NCBI RefSeq assembly: GCF_046119375.1
Contig: NW_027362772.1
Location: forward strand, 281,542,001 to 281,606,000
Source of the DNA: Phyllobates terribilis
Taxonomy: Eukaryota
DNA length: 64,000 nucleotides
Direction of reading: 5' to 3'
Numbering within the stretch: the stretch's first letter is position 1; the number at the start of each line of letters is the position of its first letter. The notes beneath the pieces were generated by a model, which did no database searches, was not told the DNA's origin, and worked only from the letters and a program-made list of their open reading frames with translations. Positions 1 through 64,000 of the stretch are shown here, piece by piece. The position numbers and the translations under genes are program-made.

Positions 1-794
1 GAAGGCCTAGTGAGGGCCTTGAGTGGGCCAAAGGCAGAGAGGAGAAGGAAGAAGTATATAGAGGGCAGAGGAGCATACCAGGTTCACCCCGATATATGTA
101 CCGGACACCGGGTCCGCGCCTACAGGTACCCTTTATACCCAGTAGGAACCACCGGAACCCCTGGATGACTACAGGTCCCAGGTTCACCAAACACTGACTA
201 CAGTACCAGGGCTAGGAGTCACAGAGGTCCCAGAGTCCAGGGAGAGTGATCTCCAAAGAGAAGGCCCTACCACCAGGTCAGCAGGTGCAAAGAGAGACAG
301 TAACCAAGCTAGGCCTAGCTCCAGGCAAGTCAGAAGCTTAGAGAATAAAGCAACGGATCAGGAGGCCCTATACCCGCTCACTGGGGAGAGCCCAAAAGTG
401 CGCCCTTCGCCTGGAGTACCCTGGACCGTGCCTGCAACATCACCAGTAAAGGTACTGAAGCTTACCCTCGTGTGAGTGTCCGTCTTTCCTCCGGGACAGT
501 CCTGCCGTCTCTCCCCTGCACCACCATTCATTACACCCCACGCTGCCCTGGAGCTAGCTCTACCTGTGGAGAGCCACACCATCTCTGCTGCCGTAACACC
601 AGCTCCAGAGGACTGCTCCACAGCGGTGGCACCCCTTAGCCGCATTCCTCAGGTGGCGTCACGAACACTTAAATCCCCTATAACTATTCCCCTTTTACTG
701 ACCGCCCTGGGTCACGGACCGGGCCAGCCAACGGGATATCCCCCGGCAACCAGAGGCCCGGCTGCCGAGTACCCCATGGCCCAGGGGGCGCGTC
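1..794 (+). mobile_element. Gypsy-type LTR, truncated by the window start; related to the LTRs at 55801-61338
   Basis: The last ~190 bp (TGACCGCCCTGGG..CACGGACCGGGCCAGCCA...CCGAGTACCCCAT.GCCC.GGGGGCGCGTC) match the LTR end at 61150-61338. Contains TGGCGTCACGAACA at 654-667. TSD cannot be checked. Confidence 0.65.
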
Positions 795-2390
795 TGTACC
801 GCCGGAGCGGTTTCAGGCTCAGGTACTGGCGGAGCAGTTTCAGGCTCAGGTACTGCTGGAGCGGTTTCAGGCTCAGGTACCGCCGGAGCAGTTTCAGGCT
901 CAGGTGCTGCTGGAGCAAATTCAGGCTTAGGTACCGGCGGAGCGGTTTCAGGCTCAGGTACTGCTGGAGCAATTTCAGGCTTAGGTACTGCTGGAGCAGT
1001 TTCAGGTTTAGGTACTGCCGGAGCGGTTTCAGGCTCAGGTACTGCTGTAGGAGATTCAGGCTCATGTACCGCTGGAGCGATTTCAGGCTCAGGTACTGCC
1101 GGAGCGGTTTCAGGCTCAGAAATCGCCAGAGCGGTTTCAGGCTCAGGTACTGCCGGAGCAGTTTCAGGCTCAGGTACCCCGAAGCTGTTTCAGACTCAGG
1201 TACCGCCGAAACGCTTTCAGGCTCAGGTACCGCAGTAGCGGTTTAAAGCTCAGGTACTGCTGGAGCAAATTAAGGCTCATGTATTGCTGGAGTGGTTTCA
1301 GGTTTAGGTACTGCCAGAGCGGTTTCAGGCTCAGGTACTGCTGTAGCAGATTCAGGCTCAGGTACCGCCAGAGCGGTTTCAGGCCCAGGTACTGCCGGAG
1401 CGGTTTCAGGCTCAGATACTGCCGGAGCAGTTTCAGGCTCAGGTACTACCGGAGCAGATTCAGACTCAGGTACCGCCGAAGCTGCTGCAGGCTCAGGTAC
1501 CGCCGGAGGAGATTCAGGCTCAGGTACTGCCAGAGTGGTTTCAGGCTCAGGTACCATCGGAGCGGTTTAAGGCCCAGGTACAGCCGGAGCAGTTACAGGC
1601 TCAGGTACCGCCAGAGTGGTTTCAGGCTCAGGTACCGACAGAGCAAATTCAGGCTCAGGTACTGACAGAGCAGTTTCAGGCTCAGGTACTGCCAGAGCGG
1701 TTTCAGGCTCAGGTACCGCTGGCGCGGTTTCAGGCTCAGGTACTGCAGGAGCGGTTTCAGGCTCAGGTACCACAGGAGCGGTTTCAGGCTCAGGTAGCGC
1801 CGAAGCGGTTTCAGGTTCAGGTACCGCCGGAGCTGTTTCAGACTCAGGTACTGCCGGAGCAGATTCAGGCTCAGGTACCACCGGAGCGGTTTCATGTTCA
1901 AGTACTGCCAGAGCGGTTTCAGGCTCAGGTACTGCTGTAACAGATTCAGGCTCAGGTACCGCCGGAGCGGTTTCAGGCTCAGGTACCGCCGGAGCGGTTT
2001 CAGGCTCAGGTACTGCAGGAGCGGTTTCAGGCTCAGGTACCACCGGAGCGGTTTCAGGCTCAGATACTGCCGGAGCAGTTTCAGGCTTAGATAGTGCCGG
2101 AGCTGCTGCCAGTTCAGTTACCGCCGGAGCAGCTTCAGGCTCTGGTACCGCCGTAGAGGCTGCAAGCTCTGGTACTGCTATAGAGGCTGCATGCTAAGGT
2201 ACCGCCGGAGCAGCTGCAGGCTCAATTGCCACCGGAGCAGCTTCAGGCTCTGGTACTGCCGTAGAGGCTGCATGCTAAGGTACCGCCGGAGCAGCTGCAG
2301 GCTCAGGTGCCACCGGAGCAGCTTCAGGCTCAGGTACTGCCGGAGAGGCTTCAGGCTAAGGTCCCGCCGGAGCGGTTTCAGGTTCAGGTA
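795..2390. repeat. 27-bp minisatellite (GGAGCGGTTTCAGGCTCAGGTACTGCC)n, roughly 55-60 copies
   Basis: Directly visible tandem array. The 27-nt period explains the many repetitive ORFs (VPEPETAPA, SGSGTAGAV, FRLRYCRSG). Confidence 0.95.
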
Positions 2391-2670
2391 ACCAGATAAC
2401 AGGAACAGGTATGGGTTCAGACTAGGCAGGTTCATCAACAGGTTGAGGTGCTAACAGAACAGGTTCAGGGACCTGACAACTCAAACTAACACTAACGAGG
2501 GCATTGTACAGCCACCTCCCTACAGGAAGCTAGCCTTAAATACTAGATGCCTCCCAGCTATTTGCTGGGGGCAGATTCAGAGTGCGTGCACTATCCCTTT
2601 AAGAAGCGGGGAGTGTGCCACCGTGAGACCCAAGCACGAGCCCAGGGGCAGGAAACCGTGGCAAAACAGT
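2391..2670 (-). mobile_element. Probable end of an older LTR that hosts the 27-bp array
   Basis: Short CAGGTTCAG/AACAGG repeats grade out of the array, a CCTTAAATA motif is present, and it ends in CCGTGGCAAAACA (TG on the minus strand). No partner LTR or TSD found. Confidence 0.3.
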
Positions 2671-7465: not shown

Positions 7466-7486
7466 GCCAGGCGATGAGCAACTGCA

Positions 7487-11150: not shown

Positions 11151-11156
11151 AATAAA
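11151..11156 (+). terminator. Polyadenylation signal of the APOA1-like gene
   Basis: AATAAA about 120 nt after the stop codon. Confidence 0.7.
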
Positions 11157-13078
11157 ACTTTCATCAATGCAAATACCGGATCATTACTTTATAAGATAAC
11201 ATTTCGTTTTTTTTCAAGTCTATGGTCACATAAGAATTAGTCACTTAAAGGGGTCTTCTCATCTTCTAAATTCATGGCATATCTATAGGATATCAATAAA
11301 AGTATAATAGGTGCAGAGGTGGGATCGATATCTATCGCCAGATCAGGGTCCTATTACGTGCCACTGTCAATGGAGAGATGGCCATACATGCACATATCTT
11401 CCTATTGATTTGTATGTTTGTTCCAAAAACTTGCACAAAAAATCAATGAAGGGAGATTGCGCATGTGACTCGCCCCCTGGGCCGTGGGGCGCTCGGAGCC
11501 GGGCAACAGGGCAATGATGGGGGTAGTAGTGGCAACCCGGTCCGTGGCTCAGGGTGGTCAGACCAGTGGCAGTCTTCTATATGTTTAGCAATGTCCGACT
11601 ACGCAACCCGTGGATTGCAGTCAGGGAGACCGCTGCTGCAAGGCAGACCGCTGAGGCTGGTGTTGGGGATGCAGCAGGGAATAGTACAACTCCCCACGGG
11701 AGGAGTGTAGCCTCAGGGCAGTGTAACAGGATATTGGGGGTGATGGTGCAGGCGCAGCAGTAACCACACAGAGTCCAATAATGCAGTCCAGGGTCTTTTA
11801 CTGCAGAACTTATCACAGACCCACCATGAGTACAGGGTAGGAATGGGCCCGGGTGTCTGAGGGCATTCGGGTGAGCTCCACTGGCCAGGTTGAGTGGGTA
11901 GGCCTACCGTTCTCTCTCTGCCCTTGCTGACTATCTCCCCCTTAAGTGGTATGATAGCCCACGTCCCTGAGCTTGCCCTGTACTACGCCTGTATGGCTTG
12001 CGACTCGGGCCTTAGGTACCTGTAGCTTCTCTGTGCTGTACCGGTCCCTCTGTGTGGCGGAGCCTCCAGGCTTCTTAGGCCAAGGGACCTGAAATCCCTT
12101 GCAGGTTGGTTATCTGCTGCAGGGCTTGCAACCCTGACAGCCTCGGACCCCAGTGTCCGGTTGTGTAGTTCTCTTTCAACCAGGACCGGCTCTCGTCGCC
12201 TCTGTCCCTGGCATTTCTCTTCCTCCTTTGCCTCCTGGACTCCTCAGCTGCGGCTGACCTGTCCCTCTCTTCTGGGAACCCTTCTGGATGCTTCAGAAGT
12301 GGGTCCTGGTCTCTCTAACCCTGGCCTCAGTACCAGCTTTTATAGGGGCAGCCTGCTCCCCCTATTGGCCTGGGACAGGAGGTGCTGCATGCAAATGGTC
12401 CATGACCAGAGAACCTCCCTCCTGCTCTCAGACACAGCCTTACAAGTTTGTGGCATCCAGGCCTGGGGTGACACATTCCCCCCTAGTAAAGCTTAGTACT
12501 CTGGGACTAAGCAGTAAACACAAATACTGGGTATAAATAACAACATAACATATGTACAAGTGCATTTTGTCTTTAAGGCCACGGCGCTCCCGTGACCGGG
12601 TGTCCATTTCACCCAACAAGGCGAACTTTTTGAGCAATGTGGGGACCTGTCCAAAGCAAACCCCAAATGTCGGCCCTGGGCGTGGCTGCAAGGCGAAGCA
12701 AACTACTTTGGACCACTCGAGGCCACACCAGACAGGTTTTTCTTCCGTGGACGTCTTCGCAAGAGGGCACCAGGTGCAACTATCTACAAGATAGTTCCGG
12801 TTATCCAAAGTTCATAACCTGTCAGTCCATATATCTAGAAAAACTAGAGAAAACACTATTAGTTACAGGTAACAAACATATTAAATATATACAAGGTACG
12901 CTCAGATCTTGCACTTATATCCTCGAGCGAGCTGGTGTTTGACCCCTAGTGCTCCTGGTTGACCTCCTTAACCCACTGTCTGGTGGTGGACCAACCTGGC
13001 TTTCCCCACTATCATTGAGGGTACAGCTACTAGCTGGGTGTACAGGCAGGGCAGGCAGCTGTCTGCGGGTCCTTTGGC

Positions 13079-16000
13079 TTACCGCAGGCATGGCAGGCTC
13101 ACTGTCAGCAGAGGGTTGACTCTCCTGGGCTGCTGGCGTGGGTTCTTCTGCCTCCGGGCTGCTTGTTCTTCTTGTTCTTCTGTAGGCTCCTGCTGGGTAG
13201 GCTGAAGGAAGTGTAGGACGGGTACCACTATTGCGCCATTTATCTGAGTCCAGGTCCGGGGGAACTCTCTGAGAACTGAGAACTGTACCTTCTTGTACTG
13301 TAGCCGCCGTTCCGTATCCCAGTCCGCATCTGGGGAGGTGTCCTCAGGCGTCAGGACCCCCATTTCCAGGTCGATCGGCAGCTTACCTGGTCTTGCTCGC
13401 ATCAGGTAAGCCGAGGTGCAATTTGTAGCATTCACCGGGATATGGTTGTACAAGTCAATCAGGTCTGGCAGCTTCTCCGGCCACAGGCTGCGTTCTTCCA
13501 GGGGTAACGTCTTGAGGAGATCGATGACGATATTGTTCATTTTCTCACACAGCCCGTTGGTTTGCGGGTGGTAAGGTGTCGTCCGAATCCTCCTACAGCC
13601 GTAGAGGTTGCAGAACTCCTGGAATACTTCAGCCTCAAACGCTGGACCTTGATCTGTCAAGACCTGTTCCGGATACCCATGTGGACGGCAGAAGTGTTGC
13701 TGGAAGGCTCTGGCCGCAGTTTGGGCTGTCAGGTCTTTAACAGGAACCACTGCCAGGAACCGGGAGTAATAGTCCACAATTGTCAGGGCATAGACGTAGC
13801 CCGACCGGCTTGGAGCCAATTTCACATTGTCCAGAGCTACCAGCTCAAGAGGCTGCCTGGTGACGATGGGCCTCAGGGGTGTCTGCTGGCTGGTATGGTC
13901 CTTCCTTCTGAGGTGACATGGGCCGCAGTCCCTGCTCCACTTCTCTATGGCCCTTCTCATGCCGACCCAATAGAACCGCTCCCTCAGTAGGAACTCCAGT
14001 TTCTTCCACCCGAAGTGTCCCGCTCTGTCATGGTAGGCCTCCAGGACCATTGCTGCATCTCGCCTTGGGACCACTATCTGCCAGGTCAGCTCGTGCGTCC
14101 GGTGGTTGACAAGCCTTCTGCACAGCTTACCCTCGTAGAGGAATAGCCTGCTTTTCTACTTCCATATCTGCTTGGCTTCCTCTGGAGCGTCCGGGCCAGG
14201 GCTAGTGTCTTCCTGGGTTAACATGTCTTTCACCAGGCGTTTTGCAGGGTCGCTATCTTGCGTTTCAGCCCAGCTGTGGTGGGGTAAGAGGTTGAACATG
14301 ACGGTGGTTAAGTCTTTGTCTCTTACCCAGTGAGAATGCTGAGCGGCCCCATACCGGTGGAACGCAGGGAGCTCTATTTCCTCCAGCTCTTCCGAGTCGT
14401 CTTCTCCTTCAGGTAGGTTGGTTCTGCCTGCCCGGTATTTGATTGTGAAGTCATAATTGGATAGTCGGGCCATCCACCGCTGTTCTAGGGCACCTAGTCT
14501 TGCATTGTCCAGATGTGTCAACGGGTTGTTGTCCGTGTACACGGTGAACTTTGCGGAGGCCAGGTAATGCTTAAACCGCTCTGTGATGGTGACTCGCCCC
14601 CTGGGCCGTGGGGTACTCGGAGCCGGGCAACAGGAGACGATGGGGGTAGTGGTGGCAACCCGGTTCCGTGGCTCAGGGTGGTCAGACCAATGGTAGTCTG
14701 CTATGTGCTGTTCATGTTGTCCGACTACGCCACCCGTGGATTGCGGTTATTATGAACTGCCGCTGCAAGGTAAACCCCTGAGGCTGATGGTGTACGCAGC
14801 TGAGGTTGTTTAACTCCCCATAAATGATCACAACCTCCGGTCTTTGGCTGAGGGTAGTTTCTCCTCCACCAACTTGGGATCCGGTACCCTTAATCTGCCT
14901 GACCCTTCACCCGGTATTCTCATGGGTTCTTAGGGTCCCTTCCACCTTCTTGTTCCGGAGCCCTTCTGTTTCTCTCTCTCTCTTCTCCTTCTTTCCTGTT
15001 CCTTCTCTTCTCAGGCCCCGGCCTTTTCTCTAGGCCTGCCTCTGAGCAGAGCTCCTACAGAGCCTCTGCTCCCTGTCCTCTCCTCTCACAGACTGTACTG
15101 AACTCGACTGAACCCAGATCTAAGATGGTGCCCACCTCTTATACTTCCCTCTAAAGCATGAGCCCATGTGACCAGCAACCAATGGGCTCCTGCCTACGCT
15201 CAGGAACCGTCCCCTCCTGCTCCTACATCACCGGGTTTTCCTCCCCACTCCCCACTCCAGCCAGGGACAGATTCTGTCGTGCCTGCATTACTGTCTAATG
15301 GGAGCACCGTTGAGCTGTCCCCCGGAAATGGGGTGTGTGTGCTGCATGCAGCTACCTGAGCCCTGGTCCATACTCCATCCTTACCCGGGAGTGGAATATC
15401 ACACCTCTGGCAGAGGTGCAATACCCCTGTAGCGTCCGAACCCTCGGGGCGCTACAATGGCCCACACCACTGCCCAGAATTCTAGCTTGAAGGAGCTGTA
15501 GTTCTCCGGGTTTCTTTCAGTGGGCCTCAGCTTCCGGCTGGCATACGCGATCACCCTTTCTCTGCCCTGTTGGTTCTGTGACAGTACGGCTCCCAGCCCC
15601 ACATTACTGGCATCTGTGTGGAGGATAAAAGGCTGGCCGTAATCGGGATAGGCCAGTATCTCATCCCCCGTGAAGGCCATCTTCAACTGGCGGAAGGACT
15701 CCTCTTCCGGCTTGTCCTACTTGAAGAGTGGCTTGTGACTTCTGGATTTAGATTGCCCTATCAGGAGGTCCTGCATAGGGGCTGCCATCTTAGTGAACCC
15801 AGGGATGAACCTTCGGTAGTAGCCTACCAACCCGAGGAATTGCCTCACTTCCTTGATGTTAGAGGGGCTTGGCCAGCTCTTGATGGCTGTAACTTTGTCG
15901 GGGTCGGGGGCTACTCCCTCTGCACTCACCACGTGTCCTAGGTACTGGACCTTCGGTTTTAACAGGTGGCACTATGAAGGCTTCACTTTCAGGCCGTAGC

Positions 16001-17582
16001 CTGCCAGGGCTTCGAACACCTCGGCCAGGTGCTTTAGATGGTCCTCGTAAGTCTTCGAATAGACGATCACGTCGTCCAGGTAAAGGAGGACCGTCTCGAA
16101 GTTTCGGTGCCCTAGACAGCATTCCATCAGCCTCTGGAAGGTCCCTGGTGCGTTGCAGAGCCCGAAGGGCATACAGTTGAACTCACTCAGTCCTATCGGA
16201 GTGGTGAAGGCGGTCTTCTCCTTGTCAGCCTCTGCCACAGGAACCTGCCAGTACCCGCTAGTAAGGTCCAAAGTAGAGAAGAAGTTAGCTGATTTTAGGG
16301 CTGCTAAAGACTCCTCTATCCTAGGTAGCGGATACGCATCTTTATGGGTGATACGATTGATTTGCCTATAGTCCACGCACATTCTCATGGTACGGTCTTT
16401 CTTTTTCACCAAAACTAAGGGAGCTGCCCAGGGGCTACAGCTATCTCTAATGACCCCAGCTTCTTTCATTTCTCTCAGCATTCCCTTGGCGTTCTGATAA
16501 TGTGCAGGGGGTACAGGCCTGTGTCTCTCTTTTATTGGTGGGTGGCTCCCCGTGGGGATATGGTGTTCTATCCCTTTTACTCTGCCGAAGTCTAGCAGGT
16601 GCTTACTAAAAATTCTCTCGTACTCCTGAACCACCCGGTAGACTCCTTGTTTTTGGTGCAGGGGAGTGGAGTCGGCACCCACATGGAGTTTCTGGCACCA
16701 GTCCTCCTTTTGTTTCTGGGAGCCATTACCCTCTGCCTGAGGAGATGGAGGCAACGCTTCCACGTCCCTGATAGCTTTGTGCTCAACAGCAAACAGTTTG
16801 GCAAGTGTAGCGTACCTGGGTAAGTGTACCTCCCTCTCCCCAATATTGAGAATGCGCACGGACACCCTCCCATGACGGACATCAACCACCCCCCGGGCTG
16901 TCAAAATGGTGGGCCTGCTGTCTGAGTACACGGGTTCTACCATGGCTTGGTAGTCTCTGCCTCTCAACCCGATTGCAGTCCAACACCAGATCATCATTTC
17001 ACTTTTGGGAGGCATGGAAATGGGGAATGGGTCACTCATTCTTACGCTACCGATCTCACCACCAGACAGTTCTACCTGTTGCCGTCTCATCAGGGCTCTT
17101 ATCTCTTTCTGGAGGACCCTCTGTTGGCTGGATCTCGCATTCATCGCCACCTGCTGTAAAATCACAATTACTTCTGAAAGACAGTTTTCAATCACATTAG
17201 TACCCAAGGTTATTTTAGGGTGACTTTCACGACGGTCAATGTCCACAATGATCACTCCCTGTGCCGGCAGTTCCACCTTACCAATCTTGATGGTCATCTC
17301 TCTGAACCCCACCTGCGGCACGGGTTGGCCATTGCTGGCAATGATGCTTAAGTCATCGTCTGGGTAGCGGGTTATGTCAGCGTCACTCCAGTACCACTTG
17401 AAAAGTACGTAGGGGATGGTAGTCACTTGAGACCCGGTGTCCAGCAGTGCACTCATGGGGATACCGTCCAGCACTACGGGTAAGACCGGGCGTCCCCCCA
17501 CCTACTTATCACGCCAATTAGACGGGCCTGATGACTTTATGCCTGGGGGTTGTCCCTCTACCCCAGGTCGGACCCATTTAAA
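13079..17582 (-). pseudogene. Gypsy pol (protease, RT, RNase H, integrase), inactivated
   Basis: Protease LLDTGS, RT YLDD, RH DASNVGLGAVL and YTDNNPL, integrase HHCC plus D,D,E core. In-frame TAG stops at 17502, 15972, 15717 and 14156, and a solo LTR inserted at 14590-15456. Confidence 0.95.
14590..15456 (-). mobile_element. Solo LTR (867 bp) nested in the RNase H of the Gypsy element
   Basis: TGACTCGCC...CGCTACA termini; perfect TSD ATGG (14586-14589 and 15457-15460); removing it restores EFWAVVWAITERFKHYL. Confidence 0.95.
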
Positions 17583-18529
17583 GTACAGTACCTTGCTATG
17601 TGTCCTGGCTGACTGCAACGGCGGCAAATCGGCTGTCCATCCTCAGTGTAGCGGTCGGCGGGCCTCCCTCTGAACGGCGGGATCCTCCTCTGTCGACACC
17701 ACGGGACATCCTCCGGACTGGAAGCCAGCTCGATTGGTCTTGACGGTTCCACCTGCAACGACTGTACGGTCCTGGTTAATGCAGCCACACTCTTTGTTAG
17801 CTCCTGGACCTGATGGTGCAGGTCTGCAGGCTGGGACGGATTTAGGGCCTGTGCATCAGCCCCCATAAGGTCTGCGGGGTAGGGCGCTGCCCCCTGGTGG
17901 TAAGTGATGGCAGGGCGCCGGGAAGCTACAGCGCCACCTGTTGCGGGTTCTCTGAGCACCCGGATGGCCCGATCCTTGAACTGCGCAAAAGTCAAATCGG
18001 ATTTCTGTAGGGCCATGAAGCGCAGCTAAGTCCTGTGGGCGCTGGACAGCAGACCTTCTATGAACTGGTCAGTCAACAGTTTATCAGAGTCCTGCACGCT
18101 ACCAGGGTCAGCTTGTTTGATAGCTCTCAGGGCTTCTTGCAGGTTCAAGGCATAGTCTCTGATACTATCCTGGGCCCGTTGCTTACAGCCATAGAACCGC
18201 ATTTTTATTTCTGCTGAGGTACGGGTATCAAAGGTACTCCGCAGCCGGGTCAGAATGTTCTTTACTGTCCTTTTCTCCTCATCTGACCATGATTTCACTT
18301 CCCGCTGGGCTGCACCGGTGAGCTGCCCCGTTAGAATGCTCACTTTCTGTTCTTCCGTCAGGGGATAAACTTTGAACAAACTGTGCAGTCTTTCCCTAAA
18401 GTCAGTTAAGGTATGGGATTCCCCTGAGTATTGGGGCAGCCAGGCTGCTCCGGGGATGTAGGGCATAGAGAACGGCATCACCGCTGCTGCAGCCCCGCTG
18501 GTTGTAGAAGGCCCCTCCGTGTCCGTCAT
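17558..18529 (-). pseudogene. Gypsy gag (PNMA-like capsid plus CCHC zinc knuckle) with one premature stop
   Basis: ORFs 18026-18529 and 17558-18016 are in one frame, separated by a TAG; CRRCSQPGHIARYC zinc knuckle. Confidence 0.9.
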
Positions 18530-18895
18530 CTTCCTCCCCCCTAGTTAAGCGTGGCCTACCTTCCGACGATCCTCTTCTGTAGGCCGCGGCTCCGCTGGTG
18601 CTGCTCCGGACAAGGACCTTGCGTCGCGTCCTGGTGACGTCAGTGTCGCTCTCTCTCCCTTCCAGGACCTTGCGCAGCGTCGGTGCGTAGGGCGGGGCTT
18701 CAAGTCTCGCGCGCTTTGGACGTCCACGCCCCTCTTCTTCCCTCACGGCGTCCTGATGGCGGGAAAATGGCTGAAGATGGCGGGAGATGGCTGAAAATGG
18801 CGGGAAACGGCTCCGGATGGCGGGAAACCTCCTTTTAAGGTACGTGTACAGTCTTTTTCAGGCACGCAATACCCGTTTGTGGCGGGTTGGTCACA

Positions 18896-18913
18896 ATCCT
18901 GCCGACTACGCCA
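18896..18913 (-). promoter_or_regulatory. Primer-binding site, tRNA-Ser(AGA/TGA type)
   Basis: TGGCGTAGTCGGCAGGAT, 4 nt (GCTT) after the 5' LTR, is complementary to the vertebrate tRNA-Ser 3' end ATCCTGCCGACTACG-CCA (tRNA sequence recalled, not searched). Confidence 0.9.

Positions 18914-23484: not shown

Positions 23485-23487
<3 letters not shown>
21858..23487 (+). mobile_element. Full-length Tc1/mariner (DD34E) transposon, 1630 bp
   Basis: TA TSD on both sides; TIRs begin CAGTACAGACCAAAAGTTTGGACAC and run about 255 bp; single transposase ORF. Confidence 0.97.
22272..23324 (+). CDS. Tc1-like transposase, 350 aa, open frame but catalytic Glu replaced by Lys
   Basis: Paired-like HTH, GRPR motif, WSDE, QQDN, then SPDLNPIK in place of SPDLNPIE (codon AAG at 23127-23129). 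Confidence 0.92.
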   Translation: MARKKQLSKEKRVAIIALRNERQSVRKIGKTLKVSPSAVAKTIKRYKKTGSHEDRPRKGRPRVTSASEDKFIRVTSLRNCRLTAAQIRDQVNATQSYSSRHISTTTVKRRLCAAGLHGKIAARKPLLRTGNMQKRLVWAKEHKEWTLDQWKSVLWSDESKFEIFGSNHRVFVRRRKGERMDSTCLVPTVKHGGGGVMVWGGFAGDTDWDLFKIEGILNQHGYHSILQRHAIPSALRLVGPSYIFQQDNEPKHTSRLCKGYSTKKRSDGVLRQMTWPPQSPDLNPIKMIWGELDRRVKAKGPTSAKHLWELLQDCWKTIFIDYLLKLIKRMPRVCKAVIKAKGGYFVEPRI

Positions 23488-23532
<45 letters not shown>

Positions 23533-38346: not shown

Positions 38347-39043
38347 CTGGGATCAGAACAGAAAAAGAAAAGTTAAAGCAGCAGAGTTATGGTAAGAAGT
38401 TCATTAAAGGTTTCATGGGTTAAGAAAGAACATTGGTAAAGATGCAAAAAGTTTCCTGTTGGTACCTCCCTTACTTCAAAATGCACAACTCCTTGGCTGG
38501 TAGTTATTGACATAGTTTGAGTAACTTTCATAAAAAAAAACTTTTCATGTGCCATAGGGATAAGTCAAGTTTTGATCGATGGGATTCTGAGAACTGAGAC
38601 CCCTACTGAAGACGTGCTCCATAGAAAGCACCCTCATCACCGTGACCTCCACCGATGAAAACTTCTGACATGACTTATCACACATTAAAAGTTTTTTCAA
38701 ATGGGTTGTACAGGACTAGAAAAACATGGTTGATGTCCTAGAGAAACAGCAACATCTGTCTATAGATGTCTGATATTGCAAGCTAGTCCTGTAGGAATGG
38801 ATGGGGCTGGGTGGCAATATGTGACAAAGGCTGGTTTCAGTGCTTTCGGAAGAAGGTAGTCATGTTTTTCTAATCCTGGCCAACCCATTTTTAGGGGTTG
38901 TCCTTCTTAATAGATTGAAAACCTACCCACAGGAATGGGGATAAATTTATAATCACTAAGGGTTTGACCACCGGCACCTTCACCGATCCAGAGAATCGGG
39001 GCCCCAAAGTCTCCTGAGTGAATAGATTAGTAGTGAACAAACA

Positions 39044-41471: not shown

Positions 41472-42431
41472 TATTTTGGCAGTCTTTTTGTTATTTATTG
41501 GTTAGTAGTGCCCATGTGTGACCACCACTCCATTCCCATTTCATCGCCCACTTCACAACTGTTGACTTTGGACCCTTGTTCTCGAGATCGGTGATCGGAC
41601 CACCAATGGTCATACATTTCTCACCTATGCTGTCAATAGGTGATGAATGTATATGGTAGAACAACCCCTTTAAATATTGGGTCCAGAAGTTCTGCTCATC
41701 CACGGTCAATAGTTCCTCCAGTTTGGCATACTAAGGGTGGGTTCCTGCAGAGCGAAAATGCTTTTCTGCATGTTTTCTGGATGTGTCCACACCAAAAAAT
41801 GCAATAGCCATCTGTACTATTTGTGGTGTATTTGTTGCATGTTTTTATGTTTGTGGGTGCGCAGAAATTTTTTAGTGCATAGGAAGGAAGACGGATCAGA
41901 AATATCTAGAAAATTCATCTCAACACCATTACTACTAAGTCAGCTGCAATGTTCTTCCCTCCAGACCTCAGACATGAATCAACCTCTGGATTGCAAAACT
42001 TTGTGTACAACATTAGGAAAGTCAGATGAGAGTTCATGAGTCACAGTCCGACAAGAGGAAGTCAGCAAAGGGTTATTAGGAGATGCAAGAACATGGAGCA
42101 CTGGCCGTGACCTAAATCATCAGCTTAGCGGGTACCTGAACTTTTACATGATTTCTTGATAGGTTGTAGCCTCTGTAAAGTGATGTTGATCGATGGCGGT
42201 CTGGGTTCTTGTATCCAAACCCATCACTCAAAACACTCAGCTCATGCTTGAGGGCGCTTCAAGGGTTGTACGGACCCTCGGAGGTGGTACACCACACCCT
42301 AAGCACTTCACAACTATCCACATGGATCAACAATACTTTATATTAGCTTTAACTTATCAAAAAAACATATAAAGGTTGAGTTACCCTCAAAACTTTTCTT
42401 TAAGTTGCAATATAGTGGAAGAAGTTCTCAC

Positions 42432-51815: not shown

Positions 51816-52616
51816 GTAAGTGAGCAGCGCCGAAGCTTGCCTAATCCCTACGAATTTAGATGACTACAGTATAAGGAACAATATTTAATGGGTTGACCAA
51901 CTAGAAGAGCAAAGATCTTCAGATGAATTTGACATCCAAATACATGCAACTTTTTCTATTAACTTTTATTATCCAAGTTCCATCATTCTCCAGCTCTTAG
52001 CAATGGTCCTGGGTCCCTGCTGCTCCATTTCTACGTTGAGTTTGAAACAGGAGAGAGTTTTCTGTGTTGGCATGTGATGTAATTGGGGTGGCTGGCTACC
52101 ATTTCAGTAGCTAATTCAACCTTCTTCTCATTCATCAGCCGTGACGGAGAAGGCGAGCGGCTGGTTTTTATATATTAGTAATGAGCAGTCAGCCATCCAG
52201 TCCCCTTCATGCACATGTGCCAACTCAGGAAGCTCTCCTCTTCTTGAACCCCATGTGGACGTAAAGTTGCTGAGACCCTTGACCGGTGTAGATAATGGGA
52301 CTTTAGAAGATATATTATTAATATGTTGCAAACATTTCAATTTTAAACACATTTAAATATCTTTTTTTTTTACTTAGACAACCCCTTTAAACGGGTTGTC
52401 TCGTGAAGACCACTTGTTTAACAATAGAAGAAGATCCATGGATCAACCATTGGTCTAGGTTCAGAAATCCCTGGCAATTGTTTATTATTACCAAGGGAAT
52501 GTGTATCTGGCCGTACATGTAGTCCCACATGTCAGCTCTCCTTATGGAAAAAAACTTGATATCACTACTAATGTTGACTGCTTTTGTAGTAACTAAGTCC
52601 TTTTCTTTCTTGCCAG

Positions 52617-53544
52617 TGTTCTGATTGAAGAAAACTTGAAAAGCGTCAATCTGTACGCTGGAGAACTTCAGCAACAGATCATACCCTTTGCAAAACAGAT
52701 ACATGAGCAACTAACTCAAGATTCGGAAAAACTGAGGGAGCAAATAAGACAGGAACTGGAAAAGCTGAAGGTCAAGTTGTCTCCTTATGCAGATGAGGTG
52801 CACAAGCAACTAAGCAGAAATGTAGAGGAGCTTCAGATAAAACTGGCACCATATGCAGAACAGCTACGGACACAGCTGGATAAAAACACACAGATCGTAA
52901 GTGAGCAGCTAAAGTCTGTAACGAAGGATCTGGAAGCCAAGATTAGAGAAAACGCTGACCGTGTTCAGGAATCACTGACCCCATATTCTCAAGAGCTCAA
53001 GGTTATGATAGATGACAATGTGGAACAGCTGAGAAAGCAACTGAAGCCCATCACTGGAAAAGTGAAAGAAAATATTGACCAACAACTTCAAGAACTATAT
53101 AAAAGCCTAACACCCTACGCCGAAGACGTGCAAGATGAGCTGCGTAAGCAGATTCAGAACATGGAGTTTCAGATGAGGAAAAATGTTGAGCAAATGGAGA
53201 CCAAAATGTTGGAGTTCACCGGGCAGCTGAGAGAGCAACTCTATCCCTACGCCAATGAGCTCAGGAGCAAACTGAATGGAGATATGGCAAACGTCAAGCA
53301 GATGTTGGAGCCGTACCTTACCGAGATGAACCAGAAGATGGACCAGAAGGTAGTAGAGTTCAAAGACACAATGACCCCTTTTGTTGATGACCTCAACAAA
53401 GCCCTTGTACAAAGAGTGGAGGACATGAAACAGAAGCTGGGAGAATACAACGTGAGTGTACAGGACCAAGTGGAGTATATGGAGAAAGATGTCCGAGACA
53501 AGATCCGAGATTTCATCAACAAAGGCGTTTCCACCGAAAATTAG
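52617..53544 (+). CDS. apoa4: APOA4 last exon, 22-mer amphipathic repeats; full protein 367 aa
   Basis: Acceptor TTCTTGCCAG|T. NLYAGELQQQIIPFAKQIHEQLTQDSEKLREQI matches human [33 protein letters not shown]. CDS 49+127+928 = 1104 nt. Confidence 0.97.
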
Positions 53545-55766: not shown

Positions 55767-56782
55767 TTAAGGGCTTAAAGTCAATGTCCATCTATGAAAA
55801 TGTGGCGCCCCTGAGGGTTCAGTCGCCACAGAGGTACTGCGCCTCACCCAGAGGTGTGGTGTCTCCTTTTCTCAGGTAAGGAGGGAGTGCTGCCCGGAAC
55901 CCCAACACCCGCATTCAACACTACACTACTCCAGGCCGGCAGGAAGGGCAAGATGCACTGTGTTTCCTGCTGAGCCCTGTCCCTGGCTGGAGTGGGGGGA
56001 ACCAAAGGTAGGGGGAACCAGTAGTGGGTGTGGGTGGAGGAAGTAGAGTAGGGGAGCACCATCATAGAAGGAGGTATATAAAGGGAAGCCATCTTAGGGT
56101 GGCAGATCAGTCAGAACAGTAGGAGAAGTTAGTCAGTCAGGGAGCAGAGTCTCGTTAGGAGCTCTGCTCCACAAGTGGGGCCTAGTGATAGAGGCCCAGG
56201 AGGGGAGCAGAGGAGGAAGGCTCCGTTCTATTGATGGGATCCCAGGGGGTACGGCGAGTGCAGGACTGCCCCCCTTACGCCCCGAATCTGTCCTAGTCAC
56301 CGTGAGGGTCAAGCAGGTCTGGGAACTCCAAGTGCCCAGAGGGACTTCAGAGCACCCGAGCGGGACTGTGAGTGGGGAAGCGCAGGGCAGGAGGGAGAAG
56401 ACCCAGCGTGAAGACGGTCTAGTGAGGAACATAAGAAAGCGGGGTTCCGTCAGGTGCTCCTGACCTACCTGAGGAAGAGCTGAACCCCCGATCTTGGGGA
56501 CACAGCGCGACGCGGGAGGCTGGCACCTTCGCAGTGGACCAGTGGAGCGTACATAAGAACTGTGAGTAAAGACTCGGATGACTGCACCGCACTGCCTCCG
56601 TCCATTATTTTAGCTGCGCCATCTCTCCCTCTGCACTACAAGTCCCAGCATCACCACCCACCAAACTCCACACTGCCCCGGGGGCCCGCTCCACCTGTGG
56701 CGAGCAGAAACACCTCAGCTGCCATCCCATCACCCCCCGGAGGTCTGCAGCAGCGCTGGTAAACCTTACCGGGTACCACAGG

Positions 56783-57804
56783 TATCACCCTGGCCTGGAT
56801 GCCACAAATATAATAAAGCTGTGTCTGAGAGCAAGGGGGAGGTCCTCTGGTCAAGGACCATTAGCATGCAGCACCTCCTGTCCCAGGCCAGTAGGGGGAG
56901 CAGGCTGCCCCTATAAAAGCTGGAGCTGGGGGCAGGGTTGGGGAGAACTGGACAACCTGTCTCTGGATAGAGAAGTGTCCCAGAGCAGGGACAGACAGTT
57001 GTGTTGCAGCCTAAGAGGACGTGTGGCAGTAGGAGAGCCACGAGCCAGGGACAAGAGGCGAAGTGCGCCTGTCCTGGCAGACGAAGAGACTAATTTATCA
57101 GACTTTGGTGTCTGAGGCTGTGAGGATTCCACGTCCTACAGCAGATAACCAGTCCGCAGGGGACTGTATGTTCCTTGGCCTAAGAAGCCCGGAGGCTCCG
57201 CCACAGCAGAAGGGACCAGCAAAGCCGTACCAGGCCGGGAGTAGAAAGGGACCCAAGTTGCAAGCCATACGGGCGAGAGGACACGGTGAGCTCGGGAACG
57301 TGGGCTGTTACGCTACGAGGAGGGAAGTAGCCAGAAGGAGCACAGAGAGCACGGTAGGCCTACACCCTCACCCTGACCAGGGCCAGCCTCCCACTTGCTC
57401 TCAGACATCCAGGCCCCCTCCTAGCCGGGCCAGTTTCTGGATCATATTACCTGTTCTAATAAAGACCCTGAACTGTTTAAAGGGCCTCCGTTTCCTGGCT
57501 ATCGCGGTCGGAATCATCCCCTCCATCATCCATTATATATTCTGCCCTGGGGCCATACTCCTCCCGTGGGGAGTTGAACTATTCAGTGCTGCACATTTAT
57601 ATCAGCCCCAGCGGTCTGCACTGCAGCAGTGGTTAGCCCTGACCGCAATCCACGGGTGGCGTAGTCGGACATTACCTACAGCACATAGCAGACTACCACT
57701 GGTCTGACCACCTTGAGCCACGGAACCGGGTCGCCACTACTACTCCCAGCATTGCCCTGAAGTCCGGTTCCGAGTGCCCCACGGCCCAGGGGGCGAGTCA
57801 GCTT
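56783..57804 (+). mobile_element. Foreign Gypsy LTR (family of 11466-19927) plus GCTT spacer, embedded in the 5' LTR
   Basis: Homologous to the reverse complement of 11466-12475; ends GGGGGCGAGTCA-GCTT; flanked by a 20-bp duplication (56763-56782 and 57805-57824). Confidence 0.85.
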
Positions 57805-57993
57805 ACCTTACCAGGTACCACAGGTGGCATCACGAACTATTTATTTTATTTTTCCTATCCAAGTTACAAATCCCCCTTTTTAGTTGACCGCCCTGGGCCA
57901 CGGACCAGGCAGCCACTGTGACATATCCCCCCCCACCAGCATCCATAGGCCCGGCTGTCGAATACCCCATTGCCCTGGGGGCGCGTCAACTTC

Positions 57994-58011
57994 TGGCGTC
58001 ACGAACAGGAT
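57994..58011 (+). promoter_or_regulatory. Primer-binding site, tRNA-Ser(CGA) type
   Basis: TGGCGTCACGAACAGGAT, 5 nt after the LTR, is complementary to the 3' end ATCCTGTTCGTGACG-CCA of a vertebrate tRNA-Ser(CGA) isodecoder (recalled, not searched). Confidence 0.85.
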
Positions 58012-58386
58012 TTCGTGCCCGTTGCAACTAACAGGATTCCGTGCCCGTTGCCACCGGGTACTGTGCGCCTTAAAGAACTGTGTTATGTTACTGAATGTGG
58101 CGCCCGCCCCAGAAGAACGGGCGCCATTATGTGCGTGGTCAAAGACAACAATATGGAGCCTCCCATCATGGGCCGGGTCCCAGAATGGCGCCAAAAGCAC
58201 ACCCTGCCGATTGCAACAGTGACTGTCCGCATAGATGTGTCCATCAAGGCAGAGAGGACGTCACAGGGAGTGACCGACAGCAGGCTGCCATGGGACCGCC
58301 CGCGAAAGGGGAGGGGAGGAAGAGAGAAGGAATGGAGACAGGGTGTGGTCTTAACAAGTCTACACAGACCGCACCCGGCAGCCAGC

Positions 58387-59499
58387 ATGGACGGAAGCAA
58401 GGATCCAGCCTCCGCCTCTGGCCTGCAGGAACAAGCGACCCCCCTCACCCTGGAGGGGGAATCAAGTAAACTGTCCCCGGAGGATACGGAATTCCTCCAA
58501 ATAGAGATCCTGGAGCTGAGCCAGCAGGTGGAACGGGCCCAGCCAGCAGCGGTCACCAGGTGGAAGAGCGAGCTGCTGGAGAAGTTAGCAGCTCGGCGGC
58601 GGCCAGCACCGGATATTATCAGCGGCACCCCAGCCCCGGCGGAGCCTGATGAACACCAGGAGGCCGTGTGCAGCACAGGAGCAGGTAGGAAGAGTTCCCC
58701 CATCCAGGGCGCTGCAAGCACCGACCTGCTCCGGGGCCTCCTGCAGCAGCAGCCCCTGTACCCGGGCGCGTGCACCCTAGACCAGCTGCTAAGCCCGGAA
58801 CCTCCACCCCCGGGCGCTGAATCCGAAAACCTCCTGCTCGGCTCCCTCCCGGAACCGCCACCTCCGGCACCCGGGTGGGTGTACGGCGCCTTCCTTTGAT
58901 TGGTCCGCCAGATTTGGGGACCAGCAGCCGTACCCGCTACTCCCGACACCAGCGCCCCCGGTTGCCTGACCCAGCGGAGAAGAATTTAGTTGGGACAACC
59001 GGGGGGGGGACCTGATGGGGTTCCCGCAGGAGACCCAAGCCGAGGCCCTGCAGAGAAAGGAGTTCTGCAGGCGGGAGCTCCAAAAGCTGGAGAAGGAGCG
59101 GCACACTCGGTGGGCGCGTTGTGAGCAGTTAAAGGCCCGGAACAAGGCCGCAAAAGCTCAAGCCCGGCAGGTGGAATCTGCCCACCCCAGCCCCGTGAAG
59201 AAGGACTAGTAGTAAAGTTCGACTTGAAGGCTGGGTGGTGCTTTATCCGAAATCCCAATTTCTGCAGGGATATTTTCGTGAACCGGCGGGATGTTGAGCC
59301 CGAGCTGGAACAGGGCCATCCCAACCGGAACCTGTACCCCGGCAACCGTGTCACCTACACTCGACACCACGGGGAACGCGGGTGGTATGCCCTCCAACTG
59401 TGCCGCGTGATTGAGGACACGCCCCCGCAGAACATGGCTGATGACCCGGCTGGGTCCAGCAAAAATCAAAAGTACCCCAGGCGGGAACCCCACTACTAG
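58387..59499 (+). pseudogene. Disrupted internal ORF: helical/Pro-rich N-terminus, coiled-coil segment and C-terminal cold-shock domain (about 59197-59400)
   Basis: Frame open from 59125 gives EEGLVVKFDLKAGWCFIRNPNFCRDIFVNRRDVE...RNLYPGNRVTYTRHHGERGWYALQL, matching the CSD RNP-1, RNP-2 and C-terminal strands. Pieces lie in different frames (58387-58899, 59015-59209, 59125-59499). Confidence 0.7.
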
Positions 59500-62309
59500 T
59501 ACAGTAGGTGGGACTAAACTGTATATAGTCACCCGTAAGGGTACAGAAAATTGAAGTTGTTTTAAGTGTGTTTTAATAATTACCCGTCAGGGTATACAGA
59601 CTTCAGGCTGAGGACTGTAAGCAGCCAAAGACTGACTTTGTATATAGTTTTGCACTTCTTAAAGTGCTCTCTATTGGTTTTATAAGTGCAACCAAGTGAC
59701 CTCAGAAAAAAAACCCGTTTGGCGTGGCGGAAGACGTGGTCCAGCACCAGGATCACCTATGCCCTGCAGCCACGCCCAGGGCCTACGTTGAGGGTTTGCG
59801 GATGGGTCCCTCATGCTGCTACTTTTGCACCTGTTTGAAAAAGAAAATGGACACCCGGTTATAGAATGTGCTGTAACCTGTTGCAGAATGTTATTAAAAG
59901 TGTTTGTGATGTTATGATAACCTGTAACTTTAAAGAGAAGTGCCTCCCTTAAAGGGAAGAAATGTTTTGTTACAATCTTATATGCGAATGCATTCTAAAA
60001 ACTGCATGTCTAATTTACCGTGTTTTGCTCAGTTCCAGCCCGCGGACGTGCTGTGTTTTGCAAGTGTGGAGTGTGGCGCCCCTGAGGGTTCAGTCGCCAC
60101 AGAGGTACTGCACCTCACCCAGAGGTGTGGTATCTCCTTCTCTCAGGTAAGGAGGGAGTACTGCCTGGGACCCCAACACCCGCATTCAACACTACACTGC
60201 TCCAGGCCGGCAGGAAGGGCAAGATGCAATGTGTTTCCTGCTGAGCCCTGTCCCTGGCTGGAGTGGGGGGAACCAAAGGTAGGGGGAACCAGTAGTGGGT
60301 GTGGGTGGAGGATGTAGAGTAGGGGAGCACCATTGTAGGAGGTATATAAAGGGAAGCCATCTTAGGGTGGCAGATCAGTCAGAACAGTAGGAGAAGTTAG
60401 TCAGTCAGGGAGCAGAGTCTCGTTAGGAGCTCTGCTCCACAAGTGGGGCCTAGTGATAGAGGCCCAGGAGGGGCGCAGAGGAGGAAGGCTCCGTTTTATT
60501 GAAGGGATCCCAGGGGGTACGGCGAGTGCAGGACGGCACCCGTATGCCCCGAATCTGTCAGAAGACAGAGGGATCAGGCTGCAAGAAGGGGACTGGCCCC
60601 TGGACCAGCCGTGTTACTCCAGGTCTCGGCTGGAAAAACCGGAGGCTTCTGGCTTTCATAGTGCAGTTGCCAAAGCCTCATCCTAGTCACCGTGAGGGTC
60701 AAGCAGGTCCGGGAACTCCAAGTGCCCAGAGGGACTTCAGAGCACCTGAGCGGGACTGTGAGTGGGGAAGAGCAGGGCAGGAGGGAAAAGACCCAGCGTG
60801 AAGACGGTCTAGTGAGGAACATAAGAAAGCGGGGTTCTGTCAGGTGCTCCTGACCTACCTGAGGAAGAGCTGAACCCCCGATCTGGTGGACGCAGCGCGA
60901 CACGGGAGGCTGGCTTCCGTGCAGTGTACCAGTGGAGCGTACATGAGAACTGTGAGTAAAGACTAGGATGACTGCACCGCACTGCCTCCGTCCATTATTT
61001 CAGCTGCGCCATCTCTCCCTCTGCACTACAAGTCCCAGCATCACCACCCACCAAACTCCACACTGCCCCGGGGGCCCACTCTATCTGTGGGGAGCAGAAA
61101 CACCTCAGCTGCCATCCCATCACCCCCCGGAGTTGTGCAGCAGCGCTGGTAAACCTTACCAGGTACCACAGGTGGCGTCACAAACTATTTATTTTATTTT
61201 TCCTATCCAAGTTACAAATCCCCATTTTTAGTTGACCGCCCTGGGCCACGGACCGGGCCAGCCACTGTGACATATCCCCCCCCCACCAGCATCCATAGGC
61301 CCTGCTGCCGAGTACCCCATTGCCCTGGGGGCGCGTCAAAAACAGTCATACTGTTTATGTTTAGAATTATTCTACATGGAAAAAGTTATCTTGTAAGTAT
61401 ATTGCTTTCATGGAGTTTGCATTTCTGGCACAGGGACTGGAAGTCAGTGAATGGGGGTCAGAGGACCTTCATTCTCTCGATTGATGATGGTCTTGGAGGG
61501 GGTTTATTCTTAGATTGACCTACCCCATTAAAGAGCATCTGTCACCATCATTATCTATAATAAAAACATATAATACATATATTTTTCTCAATACGTCTGT
61601 GATTTTCTTCTAGGAGCGCAACTTTTAATAATTTTATATACATAGTTTAACACAATGGACGCTCATTCATTACGGGTCTGGATCTCTTTAAATACAGGAT
61701 CAAGCAACTGATTAGTCGATTGTGTCACCTGATATACTCTGCTGAATCTGATTGGTCAGTGCCCTGACTTTAGAGACTCCTTCCACACAAGCCAAGATTT
61801 CAAAGTGAAAAATGTCACAAAATACAAATACCCCCCCAAACTCAGTGTACAGACCCCCAGAAAGCAGCGAGTTATCCCCTCCTCCCTATCCTATCAATAG
61901 GGGATAATTTCACATTGGTACCTATGAGGAAGAGAAATTTAATCTCAAAGTTCAACAGCTCCACTTTCTTATCAAAACTGTAAAGCAATGAAATAGGTTC
62001 CCACTGGTGTGGAGAGACTAATGGACCAGGCAATGCTCCCTGGGAAAAAAAATATGCAAATTAACCCACATCCACATTTAATTTATTTTACAATTCCCTA
62101 CTATTCTTCCTATACAGCTAATCCCTATCTGTTATTTTTTACTCCCTGTTCCAGTGATGTTTCAATGGAGGGGAGTCACAAATGAGGCATCACAGGAGGA
62201 TGACCCTGTATTCACTTCTCTGCAGCATCTATCACCCCTCCTGAAACAGGACGTCATCAGGACCACCTGTTTCAGTAGCAATGATGGAAATGTGATAGCA
62301 ATTTTTGTT

Positions 62310-62897
62310 ACTGTCGCAGCATTTCTGTCCCCGCCGCAACATCTTCAGTCGCCGCCATCACAGTCCCTGCTTCTGTCCTTGCCGCTGCATCTTCAGTCAC
62401 CCTTCCATAGTCCCTGCTTCTGTCCCTGCCGCTGCATCTTCAGTCGCCGCCATCACAGTTCCTGCTTCTGTCCCTGCCGCTGCATCTTCAGTCGTCGCTT
62501 GCACAGTCACTGCTTCTGTCCCCATCGCTGCATCTTTAGTCGCTGCTTCCACAGTCCCTGCTTCTGTCCCCACCACTGAATCTTCAGTCGCTGCTTCCAC
62601 AGTTCCTGCTTCTGTCCCCACCACTGCATGTTCAGTCGCCGCTTCCACAGTCCCTGCTTCTGTCCCCACCACTGCCCTGTTCAGTCCCGCTTCCACAGTC
62701 CCTGCTTCTGTCCCCACTGCTGCATCTTCAGTCGCCGCTTCCACAGTCCCTGCTTCTGTCCCCACCACTGCATCTTCAGTCGCCGCTTCCACAGTCACCG
62801 CTTCTGTCCCCACCGCTGCATCTTCAGTTGTCACTTCCACAGTAACTGCTTCTGTCCCCACTGCATCTTCAGTCGCCGCTTCTACAGTCACTGCTTC
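62310..62897. repeat. 48-bp minisatellite (ACAGTCCCTGCTTCTGTCCCCACCACTGCATCTTCAGTCGCTGCTTCC)n, about 12 copies
   Basis: Visible tandem array; gives the spurious TVPASVPTTASSVAAS repeat ORFs; cut by the LTR at 62898. Confidence 0.92.
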
Positions 62898-64000
62898 TGA
62901 CTCGCCCCCTGGGCCGTGGGGCACTCGGATCCGGGCAATAGGGGGAACGATGGGAGTAGTAGTGGCAACCCGGTTCCGTGGCTCAGGGTGGTCAGGCCAA
63001 TGGTAGTCTGCTACGTTCTGCTGATAATGTCCGACTACGCCACCCGTGGATTGCGGTTATTAGGAACCGCCGCTGCATGCAGACCGCTGGGGCTGATGAG
63101 GTGTGCAGCTAGGGTAGTGTGACTCCCCACGGGAAGAGTGCGGCCCCAGGGCAGTATAATGGATGGTGGGAGTGATGGTAGTGAGAATCCCAGTGCTGAT
63201 AGTGCTGGAGGAGCAAGGAGCACACAGACAACAAGTTGCAGTCCAGGGTCTTTACTGAAACAGGTAAACTGACCCATAAACAGTCCCAGCTAGGAGGGGA
63301 CCTGGATGTCTGAGAGCAACGGGGAAATTGGCCCTGGTCAGGGTGAGGGTGTAGGCCTACCGTGCTTTCTGCGCTCCTTCTGGCTATCTCCTCGTTATAG
63401 GGTAACAGCCCACGTTTCCAAGCTTTCCGTGTATTCTCGCCTGTATGGCCTGCGACGTGGGTTCCTTTCTGCTCCCAGCCTTGTACGGCTTTACTGGTCC
63501 CTTCGGTTGTGGCCGGGCCTCCAGGCTTCTTAGGCCAAGGAATGTACAGTCCCTTGTGGACTGGTTCTCTGCTGGGGGATGTGGAATCCTTCCAGCCTCA
63601 GACACCAAAGTCTGGTAAAGCTAAGTCTTTCTCTGCCAAGACAGGCTCTCTTCGCCTCTTGTCTCTGGCTTGTGGCTCTCTCCTACTGCCACACTTCCTC
63701 TTAGGTGCAATCAACTTTCTGTCCCTGCTCCACTCTGGGACACGTCTCAGTGCTGAGACAGGCTTTCCAGTTCTCTCTAACCCTGTCCCCAGTACCAGCT
63801 TTTATAGGGGCAGCCAGCTCCCCCTACTGGCCTGAGACAGGAGGCATTGCATGCTAATGTTCCCCTGACCAGAGAACCTCCCCCTTGCTCTCAGACACAG
63901 CTTTATTACACTTGTGGCATCCAGGTAGGGTGACACATTCCCCCCTAGTGAAATTTAGTACTCCGGGACTAAACAATAAACAAAGACAATATGCACAACA
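62898..64000 (-). mobile_element. 3' LTR (62898-63937), PPT and start of the internal region of another Gypsy element that runs out of the window
   Basis: TGACTCGCCCC...GGTGACACA, followed by TTCCCCCCTAGT (PPT on -) and sequence similar to 12476-12540. Confidence 0.9.

Follow-up and report, generated by a model that had tools for sequence, protein, structure and literature searches.

A short second tRNA-Ser match beside a small RNA helix suggests an apparently undescribed tRNA landing pad in the U5 of vertebrate LTR retrotransposons

The choice and loading of the primer tRNA have been worked out in few retroelement systems, and the helper sites known besides the primer binding site (PBS) pair with other parts of the tRNA. 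As these systems are described in the sections of the papers drawn upon here, Ty3 has a PBS split into 5′ and 3′ portions, one at each end of the genomic RNA and both required for priming (PMC11381356), and Drosophila gypsy carries near its 3′ end a second tRNA site, 11 nt long, that cDNA synthesis does not require and that pairs with the anticodon and T stems such that one tRNA can bridge both ends (PMC1635307). In T-boxes a UGGN sequence is fixed beside a helix with zero spacer, and coaxial stacking on the tRNA 3′ end has been measured (PMC7583486). Here we analyse a 64-kb stretch of Phyllobates terribilis DNA (contig NW_027362772.1, positions 281,542,001 to 281,606,000; the window, to which all coordinates refer) that contains long terminal repeat (LTR) elements with PBSs for tRNA-Ser. 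All nine LTR 3′ modules in the window (9/9) hold in U5 a copy of the first 12-14 nt of the tRNA-Ser PBS, an internal PBS (iPBS), which is abutted upstream by a predicted helix. The small RNA helix together with the shorter tRNA match suggests an undescribed landing pad for tRNA in vertebrate LTRs.

The type example of the iPBS, at 57657-57668 (+), is complementary (12/12) to the last 12 nt of our tRNA-Ser(AGA) reference, the gene called by ARAGORN in locus L153. Two further Ser(AGA)-type copies match over 12/12 nt, at 14721-14732 (−) in the solo LTR 14590-15456 within pol and at 63031-63042 (−) in the 3′ LTR 62898-63936; a fourth, at 11595-11606 (−; 3′ LTR 11466-12475), matches 11/12 with its mismatch opposite tRNA C75, and a fifth, at 19047-19058 (−; 5′ LTR 18918-19927), has decayed to 9/12. 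The Ser(CGA)-type copies comprise a 14-nt match at 654-667 (+; solo LTR ending at 795), two 12/13 matches at 57825-57837 (+; the 5′ LTR of the CGA element, pushed downstream by an insertion) and 61173-61185 (+; 3′ LTR 60072-61338), and a 10/13 match at 27315-27327 (−; LTR ending at 27173). All lie where the original prediction had placed them, one (61173-61185) a single base left of its estimate. The motif starts 141-166 nt and ends 129-154 nt from the LTR 3′ end, and in 7/9 copies an A(G/A)TAAA hexamer stands 196-218 nt before its start, which together place it in the predicted U5. A search with a model of the module found nine copies in the window and none further below E 0.1; eight of the nine are followed by the iPBS; in the ninth (56672-56783) an insertion interrupts the sequence at precisely the first iPBS base, and the motif resumes at 57825. 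Loose motif counts are weak against chance (10 vs 1.9 expected at two mismatches, 7 vs 9.1 at three), and the sequence case for the iPBS stands on exact matches at a single aligned position.

Pairwise identity within the iPBS is 0.96 among four AGA copies and 0.83 among three CGA copies and drops to 0.42 and 0.38 in the 3′ flank, the outcome that the original prediction would require of a retained motif; the seven nucleotides preceding the iPBS reach 1.00 and 0.90. Among the 40 of 106 contig variants that are listed (four runs, three organisms), none falls in 57636-57674 and eight fall in 57675-57695, a gap over the iPBS that lends weak support, because the remaining variants, and those near contig ends, are not in the list. 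Summed contig depth peaks in the bin holding the helix arm and iPBS in 4/4 runs, but depth cannot rank parts of a stretch and is not counted as evidence. In the sequencing-run contigs none spans both iPBS and PBS, and the joints show LTR modules recombining.

Outside the window, two collections scanned with the 18-nt AGA PBS alone gave 41 and at least 115 loci, and a simple rule retained 57 of the 156 listed loci, representing 34 LTR-type families of which about four are probably bacterial chance matches. Among these listed matches four of the 34 PBS-found families (L045/L142, L054/L140, L117 and L137) carry a 10-12-nt copy 37-86 nt upstream of the PBS; in the other 30 the longest upstream match is 7 nt, and the chance of four such families is about 3e-10. 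A PNMA-like Gag was identified by tblastn in three of the four, L137 being too short for a call. The iPBS recurs in LTRs that have no other alignable shared sequence. In Table S1 of a zebrafish survey at least four LTR types carry it (rows 400/756/870, 1373, 2045 and 308; PMC8672886), the PBS itself being displayed for rows 400/756/870 only, and rows 1064, 1553 and 850 have a Ser PBS with no internal copy in the displayed part; the portions of the survey consulted make no remark on an internal copy. Twenty further Gypsy regions in host-contaminated bins, 14 with a readable PBS, included none with an internal match above 6 nt. In a viral contig collection the AGA PBS had no match and no reverse transcriptase (RT) relative was found, and none of six matches to the CGA PBS was accompanied by a tRNA gene. 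Three bins filed as bacterial (G001, G002 and G003) hold 119, 30 and 12 RT matches, many in full LTR elements, and are on this sequence content eukaryotic host contamination.

The helix, absent from the original prediction, distinguishes the iPBS from a true PBS. In all four fetched iPBS families (L045, L117, L054 and L137) a 5-8-bp helix of varying sequence closes at base -1 to the iPBS UGG, measuring 8, 7, 7 and 6 bp, respectively, versus 1, 2, 4 and 3 bp at the families' own true PBSs, and each family has its own 6-8-bp hairpin sequence in the same register. At the true PBSs of families lacking an iPBS an abutting helix of at least 6 bp occurs in 0/26, the 26 controls being the 34 families minus the four with an iPBS and the four likely bacterial ones. 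The last five nucleotides before the iPBS have pairing probabilities of 0.86-0.99 in the four fetched families, equalled by 5, 1, 1 and 0 of 100 shuffles (Fisher p 1.7e-4). The four zebrafish LTR types have distinct hairpins of 5-8 bp in this register, as judged by eye from the displayed sequences of the supplementary table (PMC8672886), which for rows 400/756/870 begin within the 5′ hairpin arm. In these fish-type U5s (L045, L054, L117, L137 and zebrafish rows 308 and 2045, as displayed) short shared motifs can also be seen by eye between the poly(A) hexamer and the hairpin.

As modelled, the window helix is long-range and belongs to a covarying U5 domain with a probable pseudoknot. A predicted 7-bp helix, S2 (57563-57656, +; arms 57563-57569 and 57650-57656), ends at the base before the type iPBS and encloses P3 and P4, and a predicted 5-bp stem with a 1-nt loop, S1 (57557-57574, +; arms 57557-57561 and 57570-57574), overlaps the S2 5′ arm, the two making a predicted H-type pseudoknot. 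The domain with its iPBS was located by the module model at 542-667 (+; solo LTR ending at 795), 11595-11722 (−) and, with the decayed iPBS, 19047-19175 (−) in the 3′ and 5′ LTRs of one element, 14721-14845 (−; solo LTR 14590-15456, S1/S2 5′ arms decayed), 27315-27437 (−; LTR ending at 27173), 61062-61185 (+; 3′ LTR 60072-61338) and 63031-63155 (−; 3′ LTR 62898-63936, whose element continues beyond the window); at 56672-56783 (+) the domain in the CGA element's 5′ LTR is cut at the first iPBS base by an AGA-type LTR. Over eight copies 96% of 175 cells pair, with two-sided change in 6/22 pairs and 12 one-sided changes, a covariation score reached by 0/500 shuffles while slid controls pair at 34-60%; these counts are support and not proof, since the structure was derived from these same, related copies. 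For S1, which was proposed by eye from the same sequences, 94.9% of cells are paired and two-sided change is seen in 2/5 pairs. Folded as single sequences, 4/8 window copies hold the helix well, and such folds of the whole U5 are unremarkable (z -0.70 and +0.99). Rfam gave no match at gathering score in the window and none at E<=10 in 57440-58100, and a tRNA-like cloverleaf, a known self-cleaving ribozyme or another Rfam family in the LTR was rejected because neither ARAGORN nor Rfam found a match. The fish-type hairpins escaped the window model, their best match reaching E 0.12. Between the iPBS and the LTR end a long terminal hairpin is predicted (57705-57800, +; 21 pairs, four two-sided, a weak covariation term), and this hairpin, reaching up to the LTR 3′ end, is common to the otherwise divergent window LTRs, recurring at eight homologous places.

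A true PBS is visible in only two window elements, and both match their own iPBS in type. One is a Ty3/gypsy (Metaviridae) element at 11466-19927 (−), assigned on its LTR pair, 4-bp target site duplication (TSD), PBS, polypurine tract and gag followed by protease (PR), RT and integrase (IN), with a PNMA-like Gag and a PR-RT-RH-IN order; its LTRs are 97.6% identical, gag and pol contain in-frame stops, and a solo LTR lies within pol. Its 18-nt PBS for tRNA-Ser(AGA), 4 nt past the 5′ LTR at 18896-18913 (−), is complementary to the 3′ end of the L153 gene. The other is a non-autonomous element at 55801-61338 (+) with a 4-bp TSD, in which a domain search gave no gag or pol domain; a sequence match places its 18-nt tRNA-Ser(CGA) PBS 5 nt past the 5′ LTR at 57994-58011 (+), with 17 nt complementary to the tRF-Ser-CGA primer as printed in the part of PMC9659620 consulted. 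The claim that the iPBS follows the isoacceptor of the cognate PBS is therefore borne out in both elements with a visible PBS; the five further related LTRs, solo, nested or 3′-only, could be typed only by their module, as their PBS is not visible. Co-variation of iPBS with PBS type was likewise put forward as a check, and the sequences agree with it, with the qualification that the CGA side is based on one linked element. Identity above the 3′ flank, recurrence in unalignable LTRs and type match wherever visible give sequence support to the earlier proposal of a conserved second tRNA-annealing site.

We favour, with middling confidence, the view that the iPBS in the U5 of the element RNA serves as a conserved dock where the primer tRNA binds but does not prime, and from which it would be handed over to the 18-nt PBS; that the iPBS binds a tRNA or tRNA fragment (tRF) in some functional way appears highly probable. 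The iPBS is always 10-14 nt long and never 18, so that it covers the NCCA end and the 7-bp acceptor stem (plus 0-3 nt) and nothing more, and its nucleotides 5-11 are those of positions 1-7 of the real tRNA-Ser(AGA). This anatomy is what toehold strand displacement on a stacked helix would call for; the mechanistic steps that follow are all inferred. The free CCA end of the tRNA would pair first with the iPBS and stack coaxially on the abutting helix; the next seven iPBS nucleotides, equal in the AGA type to tRNA nucleotides 1-7, would displace them at low energy cost; the helix would impede RT extension from the iPBS; and the nearby 18-nt PBS would invade the T-stem through its extra 6 nt and take over the tRNA by branch migration. 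The outcome would be improved primer capture or loading, with the iPBS accessory and not essential to the cycle. Estimated net binding to tRNA-Ser(AGA), computed without stacking, is -10.9, -11.7 and -25.2 kcal/mol for 11, 12 and 18 nt, and the stronger binding at 18 nt than at 12 would allow transfer of a docked tRNA to the PBS. All 3′ or nested LTRs with visible ends (4/4) retain the U5 downstream of the iPBS, and complete 3′ LTRs indicate productive priming at the downstream PBS. A variant in which the tRNA-bound iPBS frees the PBS by sequestering an anti-PBS segment was not supported by fold energies.

Several observations weigh against such a dock. The iPBS is partly paired in predicted folds; opening it costs 3.5-7.3 kcal/mol across the four fetched families, and keeping it open raises the PBS opening cost by 0.7-4 kcal/mol. 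Single-sequence folds are weak for the helix in 2/3 CGA and 2/5 AGA window copies (0.10, 0.18, 0.51 and 0.59), and the U5-domain pair counts draw upon kindred copies and a structure derived from them. The one complete AGA element in the window has the mismatch opposite C75 in both LTRs and so probably moved with an impaired iPBS. Most Ser-primed families lack the iPBS, which is thus dispensable, and L049 and L092, the window element's nearest relatives by Gag, are among those without it. On a Gag tree of 12 rows out of 28 examined (L137 omitted, the window row filling 46% of columns) the grouping of the iPBS carriers into one clade is rejected (p-AU 0.0017), this patchiness implying two origins, several losses or LTR swapping, of which swapping is seen in the window. 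The case for the dock is drawn from sequence and energy estimates. Further, an LTR is interrupted by an insertion precisely where its iPBS begins, a single event compatible with occasional priming there.

That last insertion bears on a reading, in our view improbable, in which the iPBS is a second, regulated priming site giving a shorter minus-strand strong-stop DNA. The break at 56783 falls at the first iPBS base, the expected end of a cDNA primed there (one event), and short PBSs prime elsewhere, with 11 nt in Drosophila gypsy according to the section of PMC1635307 cited above; however, cDNA primed at the iPBS would lack the right attachment end and the 3′ LTRs are complete, and true PBSs have no abutting helix. 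Complementarity to the 3′ end of tRF-3 molecules would equally suit a decoy or target for 3′ tRNA fragments that otherwise block the PBS, and seed-independent repression has been reported (PMC12853362). Such a role is nevertheless distinctly unlikely, as a free fragment prefers the 18-nt PBS (-36.4 vs -22.5 kcal/mol), the match ends near the acceptor-stem boundary, which fits intact tRNA, and the iPBS lies past the predicted poly(A) site and would be mostly absent from solo-LTR transcripts. We give little credence to a tRNA-independent role, either in intramolecular RNA structure or through pairing of the anti-iPBS with the PBS in single-stranded minus-strand DNA: the geometry is possible on the minus strand as well and the iPBS can pair with stretches that lie between it and the LTR end, but the match begins exactly at the last tRNA base in every case, and G-U pairs in the helix (L045; the 12 one-sided changes in the window) favour the plus strand, although C-to-T decay mimics this pattern.

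A tRNA-operated switch seems rather unlikely. In such a switch, uncharged tRNA-Ser at the helix-iPBS junction would act as on a T-box discriminator, altering U5 folding and with it translation, packaging or 5′ poly(A) site usage. It shares the zero-spacer geometry of the T-box, the iPBS has alternative partners in the predicted L054 and L137 folds, and the window U5 domain, with its invariant unpaired bases, exceeds what a dock would require; yet in the fetched fish-type versions there is a bare hairpin and nothing to read an anticodon, Rfam gives no match, and no alternative fold is consistent across families. The original prediction also offered a fossil of LTR extension past an old PBS. As an origin this is plausible, since the hexamer-to-iPBS distance of 69-133 nt in the four fetched families resembles the hexamer-to-PBS distances of 99 and 83 nt in L049 and L092, and the patchy distribution would fit. 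A neutral fossil is, however, a very improbable reason for retention, and one that these sequences have probably largely refuted already: a helix ending in G, and not a relic LTR end (..CA plus spacer), stands upstream of the iPBS, the motif is retained exactly among LTRs otherwise unalignable and conserved above its flank, and it switches together with the PBS in the CGA element.

The elements carry further traces of rearrangement. At 56763-57825 the CGA element's 5′ LTR has taken up, at its first iPBS base, a whole AGA-type LTR (about 56784-57804) together with the latter's 4-nt pre-PBS spacer. This insert has a 21-nt duplication and no 4-bp TSD, and resembles the product of a template switch or of captured unprocessed cDNA. 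The solo LTR 14590-15456 (−) is 82% like the CGA element LTR over its first 85 nt and has an AGA-type 3′ module, a hybrid from which it follows that LTR modules recombine. Within the CGA element an approximately 26-nt duplication (58004-58055, +) begins in the PBS and repeats its 3′ half just downstream, and in place of gag and pol there are a 124-aa frame (59125-59499, +) with a weak Pfam CSD cold-shock match (E 2.4e-4, below cut-off) and a 316-aa frame with no Pfam match. Tandem arrays of 27 bp (796-2400) and 48 bp (62344-62909) directly adjoin two LTR 3′ ends. Elsewhere the window contains a Tc1-like transposon (21848-23497) whose inverted repeats are 282 nt long (96%) and whose 356-aa transposase frame is open, a long nested inverted repeat (39039-41476) with arms 82-90% complementary, and a 315-aa frame (52597-53544, +), probably a host exon, with an apolipoprotein A1/A4/E domain (E 8e-68) that marks the window as vertebrate.

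The place of the iPBS within the LTR means that one is present in every solo LTR of these families, and annotation tools that end an LTR at the first PBS-like match would shorten these LTRs. The suggestion that solo LTRs scatter tRF-3 targets across the genome is weak: it can draw on the seed-independent repression mentioned above, but the site lies past the predicted poly(A) and offers a match to only the 3′ 10-14 nt of the fragment. Should docking hold, an acceptor-end second site with a fixed stacked helix would constitute a new mode of primer loading.

The original prediction likened the iPBS to the bipartite site of Ty3, and this comparison is a misfit. The window has in common with Ty3, as described in the text cited above, a Ty3/gypsy-group element with a second tRNA-pairing sequence beyond the 5′ PBS, and with gypsy a second tRNA site, which in gypsy is dispensable for cDNA synthesis. 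However, the second sites of Ty3 and gypsy lie at the 3′ end of the genome and that of gypsy is for another tRNA part, whereas the window sites stand within 40-170 nt of each other at the 5′ end, address the same tRNA end and accompany a true PBS of the full 18 nt. As both pair with the same tRNA 3′ end at this distance, one tRNA cannot bridge iPBS and PBS, in contrast to the two sites of gypsy. A bipartite PBS of the Ty3/gypsy type was accordingly rejected, the iPBS being in the predicted U5 about 200 nt past the poly(A) hexamer and not at the genomic RNA 3′ end, and having the same sequence as the PBS over its first 10-14 nt. The window element shares its PNMA-domain Gag, CCHC knuckle and PR-RT-IN with PNMA-domain Metaviridae of non-mammalian vertebrates, and the portions of the papers on these elements that we consulted are silent on U5 structure and a second PBS (PMC11011659, PMC4131045). 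No earlier description of an iPBS with its helix was found in the literature searched, subscription papers and Repbase/Dfam notes being outside its coverage.

The closest geometry is that of the T-box, in which, as in the iPBS, UGGN directly adjoins a helix. According to the sections of PMC7583486 consulted, T-boxes are bacterial, pair 4 nt and read the anticodon by Stem I, whereas the iPBS pairs 10-14 nt, would open the acceptor stem and has its helix partner upstream; no Stem I, specifier codon or purine string was seen in the iPBS domains, nor was there an Rfam match. By this comparison the iPBS is not a T-box and would at most work like one, which if true would make it a rare eukaryotic instance of T-box-like geometry. 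It is conceivable, though doubtful, that vertebrate PNMA-type LTR retrotransposons gained, perhaps repeatedly, a structured U5 RNA that stacks on the tRNA 3′ end and distinguishes uncharged from charged tRNA-Ser in a T-box-like way, for primer loading or as an RNA-fate switch, and so would represent a eukaryotic tRNA-sensing cis-element. Set against these known systems, the iPBS with its abutting helix is a real, conserved cis-element and a new, apparently undescribed, form of auxiliary tRNA-binding site.

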